DNA of 64,000 bases, from the sequence record SRR20825019_968. One strand, given 5' to 3'. The notes under the pieces were generated by a model. It was not told where the DNA came from. It did no database searches and saw only the letters and a list, made by a program, of their open reading frames with translations. Numbering within the stretch: the stretch's first letter is position 1; each line of letters opens with the position of its first letter. Positions 19,727 to 26,025 of this stretch are shown in pieces. A program made the position numbers and the translations under genes.

Positions 19727-20458
19727 TTATACTCCAAGCAAGTTTTTAAGCGGTGTATATGCTGATCTACTAATCGGAATGCGTTGTTTATCAGTAAGCA
19801 CCGCTCGGTAGGAATTTTTCTCGAAAGGTTCAATTCCAGTTAGTGCGTTGATATTTAAGATGTAAGAGCGATGAACGCGAATGAATTCGGAGGGATTCAG
19901 CGATTTTTCAAAGTAGGAAAGGGTTTTCTTCTTTAAATATTTATGACCGTCCGCATAAATTTTTACGTAGTCTCCATACGCTTCAATACAGGTAATTCCT
20001 GAAGTGGGAACAATTTTTATCGTTGCCCCGTCTTTAATTACAATGCGCTGATGTTCATCGGGTTGCTTGTTGATTGTCTCATTCAGCAAAGTTCCCTTTT
20101 CTTGTTTTTCTTTAGGGGTCCAGCGTTCAATTGCTTGACGAAATCGATCTTTTGAAAATGGTTTAAGTAAATAGTCGACAGCAGCAGTTTCAAACGCTTT
20201 TAATGCGTATTCGTCAAAAGCTGTGGTAAATATCACAGACGGTGGAATCTCCAACAATTCAAGCATTTCAAAGCCATTTATTTTCGGCATTTGAATATCC
20301 AAAAAGATCAAATCTGGTGCGTGCTGTTCGATCGATTTTACACCTTCGAAACCGTTTTCACATTGAGCGACAATTTCGAACTCAGGATAATCTTTCAAAT
20401 AATTCTCAACGACAGAGCGCGCGAGTGGTTCATCATCAATAATGATTACTTTTTTCAT
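19727..20458 (-). CDS. LytTR family response regulator
   Basis: REC domain (DDEPLAR, FLDIQMP, DYLLKP) plus LytTR domain (FIRVHRSYILN). Confidence 0.95.
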   Translation of the reverse strand: MKKVIIIDDEPLARSVVENYLKDYPEFEIVAQCENGFEGVKSIEQHAPDLIFLDIQMPKINGFEMLELLEIPPSVIFTTAFDEYALKAFETAAVDYLLKPFSKDRFRQAIERWTPKEKQEKGTLLNETINKQPDEHQRIVIKDGATIKIVPTSGITCIEAYGDYVKIYADGHKYLKKKTLSYFEKSLNPSEFIRVHRSYILNINALTGIEPFEKNSYRAVLTDKQRIPISRSAYTPLKNLLGV

Positions 20459-21501
20459 ACTTGAGGGATTTTGAGCGTGATGGTAAATTGATCTTCATTG
20501 ATCGATTTCTCTAACAAATAGGAGCGACCGTAAATGAGTTGTAGCTTTTTTTCTACAGAAGCCAATCCATAACCAGTTCCGCGGGAAGACGATTGACTTT
20601 CTGAATCAAACGGATTTGTTACACGAATGATTAATTGTTTGTTTTCTGTGCGAGCGACCAATTCGATTTTTACTTCACCAATTGTTCCGTACAAGCCGTA
20701 TTTAATGGCATTTTCGATAATGGGCTGAAGAATCAACGACGGCACAAGGGCAATTTCTTCTTCTGGAGCAATGGTGTATTCAACATTGAGTCTATTTCCG
20801 AAGCGAATTTTTTCGATCGCTGTATACTTGGTGATGTATTCAATTTCGTCTCGTAAAGGAACGAGTTCGTTGTTTGAAATATTGACCGTTTTCCGAAGGT
20901 ATTCAGAGAGAAGAAGAATCATTTCTCTTGCTTCGTCTGGGCTCGTGAGGCACAAGGCACTAATTGAGTTTAGACTGTTGAAGAGGAAATGAGGTTTGAA
21001 TTGTTCTTGAATACTTTTGAGTTCTATTTGATTCGCAAATCGTTCTTTTTCAATGGCGAATTCACGAATTTTTTCTTCTCGCGCAGTTTGTCGATCTCCC
21101 CAGAAGGATAAAAGCATCAAACTATTTAGCAGAACAAGAATGAAAGAGAGCACCCAAATGGAATGATAGAGCAGTTCTAGTCCATTTTCTTCTTTATAGA
21201 ACAACCATTTTGTGAGGTTGTAAAAAGTAACAGCAGTGAGGAATGAAAAAAGGAGGATGGAAGAGATATTGGGAGCTGAGAAGGGTGCTTTGGAATGATA
21301 GTGCCGTTGCGAGATCGAAATCAGGAAAAGCGCTATCACGTTAAGAACGAGTAAAATGAGTGTGGTGTAAAAAGACGCGGTAAACGAGATCTCGTGAGAA
21401 AAAATAAAAACAAAGAAAAGAACATGTACAAATGCCAAAAGAGCGCCGCGTCGGGCAGCTCTCATGGACAAAGAGGATAAAAAACCTAAATTATTGGTCA
21501 T
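20455..21501 (-). CDS. LytS/YehU-type sensor histidine kinase
   Basis: Four TM segments; QFKPHFLFNSLNSI, LQPIIENAIKYG and GTGYGL. Confidence 0.92.
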   Translation of the reverse strand: MTNNLGFLSSLSMRAARRGALLAFVHVLFFVFIFSHEISFTASFYTTLILLVLNVIALFLISISQRHYHSKAPFSAPNISSILLFSFLTAVTFYNLTKWLFYKEENGLELLYHSIWVLSFILVLLNSLMLLSFWGDRQTAREEKIREFAIEKERFANQIELKSIQEQFKPHFLFNSLNSISALCLTSPDEAREMILLLSEYLRKTVNISNNELVPLRDEIEYITKYTAIEKIRFGNRLNVEYTIAPEEEIALVPSLILQPIIENAIKYGLYGTIGEVKIELVARTENKQLIIRVTNPFDSESQSSSRGTGYGLASVEKKLQLIYGRSYLLEKSINEDQFTITLKIPQV

Positions 21502-21504
21502 TCC

Positions 21505-22245
21505 TTAAATATAGCTTTGAATTTCAATACCTCCAAAGAAACAGTTTCCTTTCAAGATGAGTGTTTTTTTTGGATCAGGTTCTCCGGAGTGAACGACTTT
21601 TCGATTATCATCAATGCCTCCGAATACGGCCATGACTTCCGATTTTACCGTCCAATCGGATGGAACGATTAATGTTGTTCCGCCAAAAACAGTATTTGTT
21701 TGAATCACGGCAGGTTCTTGAATGTCGGATTTTGTCAGATTCAAATCTACACCACCAAAAACAGACGTTACTTTTGCTCCTCGAAAGTTTTTGCTCACGA
21801 TGGTTTTATTGATTCCTCCAAAAATGGCAGTCGCATCTACGTAATCATCTGGATCTACTTCTGTTGAAGATGTGAAAGTACTTGTGCTAAAAGGATCTTG
21901 TTTTCGTCCAAAAATATTGAGTGATTTTGAAAGAATGGAAATCCCCACAATGATAATTATACAAGGAAAGATTAATTTTCCGTCAATCGCGTTATCCCAA
22001 AAGTCGTTTATTAAGAAAACTGTTCCAACGCCAATCATTATGTAGCCCGGTAAATGTCTAAAATGGTTTTTGTATAAAGAGATAAGTCCAATGGCGATGA
22101 TGACTACTTTCCATGAAAAAATCCAGTTCGGAATGTTCATCCCAATGCGATCAAATAAGAACAATATACCAAAGGAGAGGATGAGAATTCCACTGATCAA
22201 TTTTGCTTTTCTACTTCTTACTGCCGAGTCGTTGTTAATTTCCAT
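21505..22245 (-). CDS. LiaF-like membrane protein (TM domain plus DUF2154-like beta domain)
   Basis: N-terminal TM helices; repeated (A/V)(I/V)FGG motifs; first gene before lytS/lytR. Confidence 0.82.
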   Translation of the reverse strand: MEINNDSAVRSRKAKLISGILILSFGILFLFDRIGMNIPNWIFSWKVVIIAIGLISLYKNHFRHLPGYIMIGVGTVFLINDFWDNAIDGKLIFPCIIIIVGISILSKSLNIFGRKQDPFSTSTFTSSTEVDPDDYVDATAIFGGINKTIVSKNFRGAKVTSVFGGVDLNLTKSDIQEPAVIQTNTVFGGTTLIVPSDWTVKSEVMAVFGGIDDNRKVVHSGEPDPKKTLILKGNCFFGGIEIQSYI

Positions 22246-22452: not shown

Positions 22453-23616
22453 TTATAGTGTTCCTCTGTGTTCTTGTTCGCGCTCAATCGCTTCGAAAAG
22501 TGCTTTAAAGTTTCCTTTTCCAAAGGATTGTGCTCCTTTTCGTTGAATAACTTCGAAGAACATTGTTGGGCGATCAACAACTGGTTTTGTAAACAATTGA
22601 AGTAAGTATCCTTCTTCATCACGGTCAATCAAAATTCCATGTTGTTTCAAAACTTCAACGTCTTCATCGATTTCACCAACGCGCTCAAGCAAATCTTCAT
22701 AATATGTTTCTGGAACATATAAAAATTCAACACCACGTTTGCGCATTTCGTCAACCGTTGCAACGATATCATTCGTAGCTACAGCGATGTGTTGAACACC
22801 AGCTCCGTTGTAGAAATCTAGATATTCTTCAATTTGCGATTTTTTCTTTCCTTCTGCCGGTTCGTTGATAGGGAACTTAATTCGCCCGTTTCCGTTCGAC
22901 ATTACTTTACTCATCAAAGCAGTAAAGTCCGTTGAAATATCTTTGTCGTCGAAAGAAATGATTTGAGCAAATCCCATCACCTTCGCGTAGAATTCACACC
23001 ATTGGTTCATTTCGTCCCAGCCAACATTTCCAACCATGTGGTCGATAAATTTCAATCCAACTGGCTCAGGATTGTAGTGAGATTCCCATTTTTTGTATCC
23101 TGGAAGGAAAACTCCGTTGTAGTTGCTGCGCTCCACAAATATGTGAACAGTTTCACCATACGTGTAAATCCCAGATCGAACTACGTATCCATTTTCGTCT
23201 TCTTCGCGAGTAGGCTCCATAAATGGTCTTGCTCCGCGTTTTACCGTTTCTTCATAAGCAGATGTCGCGTCCTCAACCCACAAAGCAACAACTTTAACAC
23301 CATCTCCGTGTTTGTTGATGTGCTCATTGATTACACCATCTTGCTCTAAAGAAGTGGTAAGAACCAAACGAATTTTGTCTTGCTTCAATACATAAGAAAC
23401 ACGGTCTTTCATTCCTGTTTCTAATCCTGCATAAGCTTCAGATTGAAAACCGAATGCCGTTTTGTAGAAATGAGCCGATTGCTTCGCATTTCCTACATAC
23501 AATTCTACGTAGTCCGTTCCTAAAAGTGGAAGAAAGTCCTCCGCTTCAGCGAACAATTTTCGCAATTCGTATTCTGTATTTTGTAAATTCTTGAGACTTT
23601 TTATTTCTGCTCCCAT
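22453..23616 (-). CDS. hppD: 4-hydroxyphenylpyruvate dioxygenase
   Basis: IDHMVGNV, KFPINEP, GVQHIA, YLLQLFT and FGKGNFKALFEAIE. Confidence 0.97.
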   Translation of the reverse strand: MGAEIKSLKNLQNTEYELRKLFAEAEDFLPLLGTDYVELYVGNAKQSAHFYKTAFGFQSEAYAGLETGMKDRVSYVLKQDKIRLVLTTSLEQDGVINEHINKHGDGVKVVALWVEDATSAYEETVKRGARPFMEPTREEDENGYVVRSGIYTYGETVHIFVERSNYNGVFLPGYKKWESHYNPEPVGLKFIDHMVGNVGWDEMNQWCEFYAKVMGFAQIISFDDKDISTDFTALMSKVMSNGNGRIKFPINEPAEGKKKSQIEEYLDFYNGAGVQHIAVATNDIVATVDEMRKRGVEFLYVPETYYEDLLERVGEIDEDVEVLKQHGILIDRDEEGYLLQLFTKPVVDRPTMFFEVIQRKGAQSFGKGNFKALFEAIEREQEHRGTL

Positions 23617-23641: not shown

Positions 23642-24799
23642 TTAATGCAACCATGATTTGTAATAACCTTTAAATTCAACTTCCAAGGCTTGCTTGGTTA
23701 ATTTTAGTGGCTTAAATGTGTCTACCATTACCGCCAATTCGTGTGTTTCTTTTTTTCCGATGCTGCGCTCATACGCCCCAGGATGAGGTCCGTGTGGAAT
23801 TCCTCCAGGATGCAGCGTTATTTGACCGCGTTCAATATTATTTCGACTCATGAAGTCACCATCTACGTAATACAACACTTCGTCCGAATCAATATTGCTA
23901 TGATTGTATGGAGAAGGAATCGAATCCGGATGATAATCGTACAAGCGTGGAACAAACGAGCAGATCACAAACGCTGGTGTTTCAAACGTTTGATGTACTG
24001 GAGGTGGTTGATGCACTCGTCCAGTAATTGGCTCAAAGTTATGAATTGAAAACGCGTAAGGAAAATTGTATCCGTCCCAACCTGCGACATCAAAAGGATG
24101 TGAAGCGTAAGTATATGAATAGAGGATCCCTTCCTTTTTTATTTTTACTAAAAACTCTCCTTGCTCATCGTGTGTTTCGAGAACTTGAGGTGTTTTTATA
24201 TCGCGCTCGCAAAATGGAGAATGCTCTAATAATTGCCCAAACCAGTTGCGGTAGCGTTTTGGTGTGTAAATAGGATGAAATGATTCAACGATAAACAAAC
24301 GATTGTCTTCTGTGTTAAATTCAATCTGGTAAATAATTCCTCTTGGTACAACGAGGTAATCACCATATTCAAACGGAATATTTCCCAATTGCGTTCTGAG
24401 CGTTCCAGAACCTTCATGAATAAAAATCACTTCGTCGCAATCTGCGTTCTTGTAGAAATATTCGGTCAGCGATTTTTTCGGAGCAGCTAAAACAATGTGA
24501 CAATCACTATTAATGAGCATTGGAACACGACTTTCAAGGTAATCGTCCTTGGGAGCAACGTTATATCCGATCAAACTGCGCATTTGCATTTGTTTGTCAA
24601 AAGCAACTTCAGGGTTTAAATCAACCTGTCCTTTAAAATCTGTAACGATTGTTGGTGGATGCAGATGATAAAGCAATGATGACATCCCGTCAAATCCGAT
24701 TGTTCCAAAAAGTTGTTCATGGTGCAATTCCCCATTCTCTTTTCGAAAAACGGTATGTCGCTTCTGCGGAATTTTTCCAAGTTTATGATAAAATGGCAT
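23642..24799 (-). CDS. hmgA: Homogentisate 1,2-dioxygenase
   Basis: HPFDVAGWDG, HQPPPVH, PYNHSNIDSDE, HPGGIPHGP and AVMVDTF. Confidence 0.95.
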   Translation of the reverse strand: MPFYHKLGKIPQKRHTVFRKENGELHHEQLFGTIGFDGMSSLLYHLHPPTIVTDFKGQVDLNPEVAFDKQMQMRSLIGYNVAPKDDYLESRVPMLINSDCHIVLAAPKKSLTEYFYKNADCDEVIFIHEGSGTLRTQLGNIPFEYGDYLVVPRGIIYQIEFNTEDNRLFIVESFHPIYTPKRYRNWFGQLLEHSPFCERDIKTPQVLETHDEQGEFLVKIKKEGILYSYTYASHPFDVAGWDGYNFPYAFSIHNFEPITGRVHQPPPVHQTFETPAFVICSFVPRLYDYHPDSIPSPYNHSNIDSDEVLYYVDGDFMSRNNIERGQITLHPGGIPHGPHPGAYERSIGKKETHELAVMVDTFKPLKLTKQALEVEFKGYYKSWLH

Positions 24800-24870
24800 T
24801 ATGTAAATGTTTTAATGAGTAAATTCTTGCCAAGTCAGACCCCAACAGAGTCAAACAGTTGAGAGGAGGA

Positions 24871-24927
24871 TCATTCCGGATTCCTCTTGATCAGAAAAAG
24901 AAGCAATAATTTAAGTGCAATCCACAT
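24871..24927 (-). CDS. Candidate leader peptide of the hmgA-hppD operon, MWIALKLLLLFLIKRNPE
   Basis: ATG 24927 to TGA 24873-24871, 17 nt after a consensus TATATTTG box; 71 nt before the hmgA start. Confidence 0.55.
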   Translation of the reverse strand: MWIALKLLLLFLIKRNPE

Positions 24928-24944
24928 AATAGAATGGTAAGTTA

Positions 24945-24952
24945 CAAATATA
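24945..24952 (-). promoter_or_regulatory. Bacteroidota -7 promoter element for the leader-hmgA-hppD transcript
   Basis: TATATTTG matches TAnnTTTG. Confidence 0.65.
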
Positions 24953-25074
24953 GTGAAAGCCTTTGCTAAAGAAAAATGACTTTGGTCACTATTTCTCTTT
25001 GAAGCAAAAAAGTCCCTCCTAAGCTAGGAAAATCGTTAAAAAATACCTCTATTTGCGCATACAAATACGTCGAA

Positions 25075-26025
25075 ATGAGAAAGGTTTTAGTCATTGGAGC
25101 GGGTGGTCAGATAGGCACGGAACTCGTAATTGAATTAAGAAGAAAGTTGGGTGATGAAAACGTAATCGCTGCAGATTTAAAAGATTCTTGCCCTAAGGCG
25201 CTCTCAGGTGGACCTTATGCACAAATGGACATTCTGAAAAGAGAGGAAGTGCGTAACTACATCATTTCGAACAAAGTTACTGAGGTCTATTTATTGGCTG
25301 CTTTATTGTCTGCAACGGCAGAGAAGAACCCGATGTTCGCATGGGAGTTAAATATGGAAGGGCTTTTTACGATCCTAGATCTTGCCAAAGAAGGACATTT
25401 AACTAAGGTGTTTTGGCCGAGTTCAATTGCTGTATTTGGACCAACAACTCCGCGAGAGAATACTCCACAAACAACTATTATGGAGCCAAGTACGGTTTAC
25501 GGAATTTCCAAACAAGCTGGTGAACGTTGGTGCGAATATTACGCAAAAAACTATGGTGTAGATGTTCGAAGTATTCGTTACCCAGGTTTAATTTCCTATA
25601 CAAGTCTTCCAGGTGGTGGAACAACAGATTATGCGGTAGATATTTTTTATCAAGCAAAAATGGAAAATCCATACACGTGTTTTTTAAAGGCGGATAGTAG
25701 ATTGCCAATGATGTTCATGGAAGACGCGATTCGAGCGACAATTGAATTGATGGAAAGCGCAAATGAGAATGTCAAAATTCGATCGTCATATAATTTATCA
25801 GGGTGTAGCTTTACTCCCGAAGAAATAGCTGAAGAAATTCAAAAGCATGTTCCTGATTTCCAAATTAATTACGAGCCGGATTTCCGCCAGAAAATTGCTG
25901 ATTCATGGCCTGGGTCTATAGATGATTCTAATGCCAGAAGTGATTGGGGATGGAAAGAAAAGTATGATTTAAAGGGGCTTGTAGAGGTAATGCTGAACAA
26001 TGTAGACGTAACATTAGTGTCTTAA
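25075..26025 (+). CDS. NAD-dependent epimerase/dehydratase, L-threonine 3-dehydrogenase-like
   Basis: GAGGQIG, LAALLSA, SSIAVFG, YGISK and PGGGTTDY. Confidence 0.88.
   Translation: MRKVLVIGAGGQIGTELVIELRRKLGDENVIAADLKDSCPKALSGGPYAQMDILKREEVRNYIISNKVTEVYLLAALLSATAEKNPMFAWELNMEGLFTILDLAKEGHLTKVFWPSSIAVFGPTTPRENTPQTTIMEPSTVYGISKQAGERWCEYYAKNYGVDVRSIRYPGLISYTSLPGGGTTDYAVDIFYQAKMENPYTCFLKADSRLPMMFMEDAIRATIELMESANENVKIRSSYNLSGCSFTPEEIAEEIQKHVPDFQINYEPDFRQKIADSWPGSIDDSNARSDWGWKEKYDLKGLVEVMLNNVDVTLVS

Follow-up and report, generated by a model that had tools for sequence, protein, structure and literature searches.

The leader peptides trpL and pheL belong to the attenuators of amino-acid biosynthetic operons, and SpeFL, the ornithine-sensing leader of speF in the Gammaproteobacteria, induces its catabolic or decarboxylase operon through Rho by a metabolite-dependent arrest at the stop codon. 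To our knowledge, only a handful of nascent peptides make the ribosome a sensor of small molecules, namely TnaC, SpeFL and the drug-sensing Erm leaders, and we know of none in the Bacteroidota. In TnaC, the conserved Trp12, Asp16, Ile19 and Pro24 together with the ribosome bind free tryptophan; RF2 recognises the UGA stop codon but the chain is not released, and the stalled ribosome hides the rut site and blocks Rho (PMC8429421). Arrest peptides of the RAPP/RGPP type comprise ApdA, ApdP and their relatives (PMC10951233, PMC7897499, PMC10987492, PMC12992588). Here we describe a family of short leader peptides, one member of which lies in a 64,000-nucleotide (nt) stretch of DNA from sequence record SRR20825019_968 (the whole of which we call the window). 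It is encoded by an 18-codon open reading frame (ORF) between a promoter box and hmgA, the homogentisate 1,2-dioxygenase gene that opens the hmgA-hppD operon of tyrosine and phenylalanine catabolism. This is no chance ORF, being conserved ahead of hmgA in more than 100 genomes. We consider it probable (about 0.6) that the leader peptide acts in cis, its nascent C-terminus stalling the ribosome at the stop codon and so controlling hmgA-hppD.

The resemblance to described systems is one of organization rather than of sequence. Like SpeFL, this leader was recognised from a conserved short ORF that had gone unannotated, although SpeFL is a longer, unrelated peptide of Gammaproteobacteria. With trpL and pheL it shares a short ORF (here predicted to be translated) between promoter and operon, but it lacks both regulatory codon runs and a conserved terminator/anti-terminator pair, it precedes a catabolic operon, and it is the peptide that is conserved. 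The parallels with TnaC are closer: a short leader ORF (24 codons in TnaC and 18-21 here) stands directly before an amino-acid catabolic operon and ends in UGA; the residues that carry function extend from a distal aromatic one to the C-terminus, with Pro at or next to the last position; and there is neither a regulatory codon run nor a classical attenuator in the spacer. However, the motif here is [W/F](-17)...K(-9)...K-R-N-P-E and not Trp12/Asp16/Ile19/Pro24, the sequences show no similarity, Pro is penultimate rather than last (as a profile built from 93 distinct leaders shows), the spacer, with a median of 55 nt, is far shorter, and the setting is the Tyr/Phe pathway of Flavobacteriales. 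By analogy, the family appears to work like TnaC on the features that typify arrest peptides, while being neither a member of the TnaC family nor its homologue. With the RAPP/RGPP peptides it has in common a C-terminal Arg-x-Pro core, a short upstream ORF and a patchy phylogenetic distribution. Those peptides, however, arrest elongation within longer ORFs, monitor Sec/YidC and precede protein-localisation genes, whereas here R-N/D-P-E is followed at once by a stop, preferably UGA, ahead of a catabolic dioxygenase operon.

Leader peptides ahead of hmgA in the Flavobacteriales

A codon pattern for K-R-N/D-P-E followed by a stop was searched for on both strands of 81 hmgA loci of about 7 kb each, 80 of them collected from species-representative genomes. 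All 12 matches lie on the hmgA strand, 50-104 nt before the ATG, and hppD follows hmgA in 12 of 12 named leader-bearing loci. The best hmgA matches to the window come from Crocinitomix sp. (84% and 83% amino-acid identity), which assigns the window to a Crocinitomix-like member of the Flavobacteriales. Several of the loci have short ORFs (sORFs) with the same ending ahead of hmgA, each closed by TGA: MIGVFETLLIHLKFLVKRNPE, MLWIDLKLSIKQILKRNPE, MCLEFEQLLILLKALIKRDPE, MLRKRFVDLKCVHKRNPE and MWIELALLLKYMNKRNPE. Each of five whole genomes holds exactly one match to the pattern, the hmgA leader itself. A larger sample of 401 genomes was taken from the order of a Crocinitomix genome on which it was centred; the name Flavobacteriales, as used here, rests on that order and on the named loci. 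With TGA as the stop, it yielded 110 matches in 107 genomes, against about 8 for the reversed pattern that served as control (all control counts in this study are approximate). The downstream gene is hmgA for 105 of the 110 matches, which precede its ORF by 42-146 nt (median 55) and come from 104 genomes; the remaining five are background. The leader family is specific to hmgA and occurs nowhere else above background in the sampled genomes. Since hmgA is present in 391 of the 401 genomes and the leader in 104, about 27% of the sampled hmgA genes carry the strict motif, a prevalence that is a lower bound because the strict pattern misses variants (2 of 14 leaders in samples anchored on hmgA).

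The first-pass annotation, made from the window alone, had made its proposal depend on conservation of the ORF in orthologous leaders, and a short ORF ending in LIKR-N/D-PE-stop does indeed head hmgA in 104 of the 401 genomes. The range that it envisaged, Bacteroidota as a whole, proved too wide, as the leader was found only in the Flavobacteriales samples. In two further Bacteroidota orders (151 genomes each, centred on a Lacihabitans genome and on a Saprospiraceae metagenome-assembled genome, MAG), the pattern gave 4 and 6 matches against 8 and 3 for the control, and none of these ten precedes hmgA. The named loci with a leader belong to Crocinitomicaceae, Flavobacteriaceae (Flavobacterium and Sinomicrobium) or unclassified organisms, and there is no leader in the named hmgA loci of Saprospiraceae, Lewinella, Cyclobacteriaceae, Leadbetterellaceae, Sphingobacteriaceae or Chitinophaga. 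One contig titled as uncultured Comamonadaceae (L033) carries a KRNPE-TGA leader before a Bacteroidota-type hmgA that is 73% identical to that of the window. On the hmgA tree this gene falls among the Flavobacteriales, and the contig has probably been mis-binned into a proteobacterial MAG. Another genome (G102) has two identical leader-hmgA copies on different contigs (L187 and L188), reflecting either duplication or assembly redundancy. In two loci (L169 and L170) the KRNPE-TGA ending is preserved with no in-frame ATG and with long spacers of 146 and 144 nt; these may use another start codon or be non-functional copies.

The conservation is that of a peptide. Among 107 distinct leaders, Arg is encoded by AGR in 39 and by CGN in 68, all synonymous forms of the Pro and Glu codons are used, and the core codons, whose residues are set by the search pattern, carry 0.06-0.2 bit at the wobble position, where positions 1 and 2 carry 2 bits; in the 15 nt past the stop there is almost no information. 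The free wobble positions and the use of both Arg codon families exclude an RNA motif, and they amount to the bias towards synonymous variation that had been expected of a conserved short ORF. Outside the pattern, Lys stands at -9 in 80 of 92 distinct peptides, with both A and G at its wobble position, Leu at -14 in 45 of 92, and a hydrophobic residue at -6, -7 and -10; at -17, Trp, Phe or Tyr is found in 55 of 86 peptides, compared to 10.6% aromatic residues at other positions. The conserved positions 9 and 17 residues back span the length of the exit tunnel. In 11 close gapless pairs of leaders, the codons outside the pattern differ by 0.069, 0.069 and 0.201 per site at positions 1, 2 and 3, and the spacers of the same pairs by 0.165 per site. 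These patterns demonstrate purifying selection on the predicted leader as a peptide, with an almost invariant K-R-N/D-P-E C-terminus. An inspection anchored on hmgA, which is independent of the pattern (although its 20 further loci were chosen as pattern-negative and are not an unbiased sample), showed two single-residue variants among 14 leaders, KRSPE-TGA in Sinomicrobium and IRNPE-TGA, with the last-position Glu invariant here too. The N-terminal two-thirds vary from hydrophobic (MWLGLLSYL...), as is the peptide of the window, to strongly basic (MNVFGRVKSKRKALL...), and the lengths cluster at 18-21 codons. There are no runs of Tyr or Phe codons in the window peptide, as had been noted at the outset, or in the family.

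The stop codon is part of this conservation. When the same peptide pattern was searched with TAA or TAG in the same 401 genomes, it gave 52 matches against about 40 for the control, five of them preceding hmgA; the resulting 110 leaders end in TGA (105), TAA (3) or TAG (2). Among long ORFs, just 6 of 49 in the window and 3 of 54 in leader-bearing loci end in TGA, the rarest stop in these genomes and one that, as UGA, is read only by RF2. The sequence GAR-TGA necessarily contains an ATG or GTG. An overlapping second ORF from that codon was considered as the cause of the TGA preference and rejected, since such ORFs are no longer than those in control frames and have no fixed end, and a second cistron hence does not explain the preference.

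The locus, its promoter and the history of the leader

In the window, the leader lies in a 275-nt intergenic gap between hmgA (minus strand) and a divergent NAD-epimerase-like gene (25075-26025, plus strand). On re-inspection of the sequence, all elements of the leader region were found on the minus strand at the places given by the first-pass annotation, the coordinates and spacings of which are all correct:

24977-24988, minus strand: palindrome-like candidate operator TGACCAAAGTCA (TGAY-N4-RTCA), seen in the sequence 24 nt 5' of the -7 box
24945-24952, minus strand: Bacteroidota-type -7 promoter box TATATTTG, predicted promoter of the leader-hmgA-hppD transcript
24871-24927, minus strand: leader ORF MWIALKLLLLFLIKRNPE, 18 codons plus TGA, from the sequence and the homologous sORFs 5' of hmgA
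24871-24888, minus strand: conserved core of K-R-N-P-E codons plus TGA, from the pattern searches
24871-24873, minus strand: TGA stop of the leader ORF, from the sequence
24800-24870, minus strand: spacer of 71 nt from the leader stop to the hmgA ATG, starting TCCTCCTCTCAAC, from the sequence
24838-24852, minus strand: local hairpin GACTCT-GTT-GGGGTC within the spacer, from the sequence
23642-24799, minus strand: hmgA, homogentisate 1,2-dioxygenase, 385 amino acids, ATG at 24799, with the Pfam domain HgmA_N
22453-23616, minus strand: hppD, 4-hydroxyphenylpyruvate dioxygenase, 387 amino acids, with the Pfam Glyoxalase and HPPD N-terminal domains

The hppD gene begins 25 nt past hmgA on the same strand. 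Beyond it, also on the minus strand, lie genes for a LiaF-like membrane protein (21505-22245), a LytS-type histidine kinase (20455-21501) and a LytTR response regulator (19727-20458), a group with its own TACATTTG box at 22276-22269 (minus strand).

Both translation initiation and promoters in Bacteroidota differ from those of model organisms, and the -7 consensus of their promoters is TAnnTTTG. Over the window as a whole such boxes are not over-represented (62 against an expected 64.7); that of the leader is the sole exact copy on the minus strand of the intergenic region, where a scan for sigma-70 promoters and terminators stayed at chance level. Sixteen long ORFs of the window have an exact box in the 250 nt ahead of them, and in 11 of these it ends 4-23 nt from the ATG. 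The box lies 17 nt from the leader ATG (24927) and 145 nt from that of hmgA, so that it is the leader ATG, and not that of hmgA, which occupies the place expected of a gene start. Most leaders have a box that ends 4-31 nt ahead of the sORF ATG, and the commonest distances are 4-8 nt (a leaderless-like arrangement) and 16-26 nt. The shorter distance is seen in about 28 leaders (L085, L090, L098, L118, L146-L149, L155, L156, L176, L179-L194 and others), and suggests that the peptide would be made there from a leaderless or near-leaderless mRNA.

A TGAY-N4-RTCA palindrome stands upstream of the box in 43 of 107 leaders, and in 26 of these the distance from its end to the box is 22-24 nt. Its copy in the window, TGACCAAAGTCA, is a candidate activator or transcription-factor site for hmgA that lies outside the leader peptide itself; its centre would fall near -41/-42 of the predicted start, as for class II activators of the CRP/FNR type. 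The palindrome keeps an equal spacing to the box in relatives both with and without the sORF, and in those without it the unit of operator and box is only about 27 nt from the hmgA ATG. As the operator-box spacing is common to the relatives that lack the sORF, the sORF and its spacer look like an inserted unit that separates hmgA from a common promoter.

A quick hmgA tree places all 13 leader-bearing rows on one side of a well-supported split, and the distribution of the leader still needs nine gains or losses, three of them required by supported branches. Part of the Flavobacteriales has had the element for long, and it has often been lost. Two loci look like stages of such loss. In a Fluviicola MAG (L069, about 2894-2960), where relatives have MWLELT..KYMIKRNPE-TGA, a decayed copy reads MWLELTAKLM-stop and then MLIQKTE-TAG; in a second, possibly decayed case (L196, in genome G292), a TTG-TGG-TTG-GAC remnant stands behind the same operator and box.

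Proposed arrest at the stop codon and its alternatives

Conservation concentrated at the C-terminus, the additional positions at -9 and -17, a rare stop codon, the place as first cistron, the restriction to one operon and a free spacer are the hallmarks of arrest peptides that act in cis on termination. The conserved peptide, the rare TGA and the lack of Tyr/Phe runs fit an arrest peptide rather than starvation attenuation, and to this extent the original comparison with TnaC and SpeFL stands; its ancillary parts, namely RNA refolding, a C-rich tract as a conserved feature and a range across Bacteroidota, do not. Both the translation of the leader and its stalling are read from these sequence features; contigs of four sequencing runs presumed to be RNA match only stretches internal to hmgA. 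We propose that the nascent C-terminus, seated in the peptidyl-transferase centre and the exit tunnel, would hinder RF2-mediated release at UGA. The trigger would probably be a small molecule of the pathway, be it free Tyr or Phe, 4-hydroxyphenylpyruvate or homogentisate; within the stop-codon reading we give a pathway metabolite about half of the weight. The parked ribosome would in turn raise the expression of hmgA-hppD, most likely in that the G-poor, unstructured leader RNA is shielded from Rho (as at tnaC) or from decay, the choice of ligand and of read-out being conjectural.

The properties of the spacer shape this view of the read-out. Neither its sequence nor its structure is conserved across leaders. 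The C-rich tract noted past the stop in the window has no conserved counterpart, although the spacers are G-poor (9.8% G and 16.7% C, with C exceeding G in 83%), which is compatible with Rho loading, while their short length argues for caution. The proposed refolding, in which AGAGGA at the end of the ORF pairs with TCCTCT just past the stop, is unsupported: the pairing is present in the window but below its shuffle mean, and over 107 leaders the pairing between ORF end and post-stop sequence is no better than in composition-preserving shuffles (p = 0.36). The first 50 nt past the stop fold slightly better than shuffles (mean z -0.48, with 14% below -2). An erm-like unmasking of the hmgA start was considered and rejected, as only 4% of leaders show a shift of more than 0.15 in the predicted accessibility of that start when a ribosome is parked on the stop. 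Intrinsic termination at a conserved site in the spacer was likewise rejected: a terminator-like hairpin with a T tail occurs in 12 of 107 spacers (3.6 in shuffles), leaving 95, including that of the window, whose leader region has zero such sites. Given the shuffle-level pairing, the 4% accessibility shift and the 12 terminators in 107, RNA refolding and intrinsic attenuation are not the general mechanism, and with no conserved terminator/anti-terminator pair and an unchanged predicted accessibility of the hmgA start, protection from Rho or decay is likelier than refolding. The minority of leaders that do have a terminator-like hairpin with a T tail (L152-L154, L168, L171 and L194) show it 25-45 nt past the stop, and in certain lineages the leader peptide may have been supplemented with an intrinsic attenuator.

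Several observations weigh against such a stall. The search pattern prescribed the last five residues, so that the 107 leaders are bound to be invariant there. Within the order sample, the loci whose hmgA is closest to that of the window (85% and 83% identity) have no sORF and 73% of the sampled genomes with hmgA are without the strict motif, which makes the device dispensable. The spacers, at 42-146 nt, are A/U-rich rather than C-rich and short for Rho loading. UGA is not obligatory, given that five of the 110 leaders end in TAA or TAG. Moreover, R-N-P-E could equally stall elongation at Pro-Glu.

This last point is the core of a first alternative, which we regard as unlikely: the same peptide would arrest elongation in the manner of the RAPP/RGPP peptides, with Pro in the P site and Glu-tRNA in the A site (R-x-P | E), and the stop would merely end the ORF. 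The Arg at -2 and the Pro at 0 do parallel the Arg-Ala-Pro-Pro motif (PMC10951233, PMC12992588), and the five leaders that do without UGA would pose no difficulty. However, the ORF ends exactly one codon past this Pro in 110 of 110 leaders, the rare TGA that closes 105 of them is not required by elongation arrest, and the last Glu is invariant even in the samples anchored on hmgA.

The pattern might instead reflect, though we find this improbable, an upstream ORF that constitutively loads or protects the transcript in these bacteria poor in Shine-Dalgarno sequences, and whose near-leaderless translation shields the 5' region from Rho and RNases or hands ribosomes on to hmgA with neither ligand nor stall. 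The roughly 28 leaders with the box just before the sORF ATG, suggestive of leaderless mRNAs, would suit such a role, as would the short (median 55 nt), G-poor and unstructured spacer. Yet it gives no account of the conservation of the five C-terminal residues, of Lys -9 and the aromatic -17 and of the rare UGA, set against the drift in the remainder of the peptide and in the spacer; the RTG-started ORF across the stop is neither longer than control frames nor fixed in its end; and relatives have the same promoter before hmgA without any sORF.

That the leader encodes a micro-protein acting in trans, such as a small membrane peptide merely co-transcribed with hmgA, is a still poorer fit and in our view quite improbable. 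Selection at the level of the peptide and the hydrophobic copy in the window are in its favour, but the range of the N-terminal two-thirds from hydrophobic to strongly basic is at odds with it, as are the mere 18-21 residues and the concentration of conservation at the extreme C-terminus and the stop codon; the sORF is, besides, the first cistron in every case, at 42-146 nt from hmgA, and five whole genomes have no further copy of it. Finally, a classical attenuator, in which the speed of translation of Tyr/Phe codons selects between terminator and anti-terminator, or else a conserved RNA or riboswitch-like element, is very improbable: the terminator-like sites in 12 spacers and the slight excess of post-stop folding speak for it, but it is opposed by the lack of Tyr/Phe runs, a starvation logic unsuited to a catabolic operon, the 95 leaders without a terminator-like site, the shuffle-level pairing, the rarely altered hmgA start, the free wobble positions with both Arg codon families and the lack of an Rfam match (see below).

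No rival explains the whole pattern as well as a stall at the stop codon. The fullest form of that reading, which we offer tentatively and hold to be doubtful in all its parts taken together, would be a 'TnaC for tyrosine', the first metabolite-sensing arrest peptide of the Bacteroidota. In it, K-R-N-P-E, Lys -9 and the aromatic -17 would form a tunnel pocket for Tyr, Phe, homogentisate or 4-hydroxyphenylpyruvate, the ligand would block RF2 at UGA and hmgA-hppD would be turned on; the origin of such a device would be independent of TnaC and SpeFL, and repeated losses would have followed in the Flavobacteriales.

Novelty and implications

The regulatory leader or arrest peptide is a kind of element already known; the family, its motif, the pathway and the phylum are new. 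Against Rfam 15, the region 24300-25500 gave only three chance-level matches (E 2.3-9.8), far below the gathering scores, and four leaders of 20-24 amino acids had no NCBIfam or Pfam match at E up to 10. Five leader peptides (the 18-residue one of the window not among them) have no exact match in a collection of 15 billion proteins, which means that gene callers do not predict them. We found no description of the leader family in the full-text literature, a search whose scope excluded subscription journals and supplements, where an earlier mention is possible; the available parts of PMC8601186 and PMC9063278 are unrelated to the leader element.

The leader family comprises over 100 natural variants and has a clear-cut motif (aromatic -17, Lys -9, K-R-N-P-E and UGA), a single pathway and few candidate ligands, which makes it directly testable by toeprinting, reporters and cryo-electron microscopy. 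If the stall should turn out to be independent of a ligand, it would still represent a new intrinsic termination-arrest sequence. We know of no regulator described for tyrosine breakdown and pyomelanin formation in the Flavobacteriales; the proposed leader peptide, if the reading is true, would account for the control of both in many members of this order.

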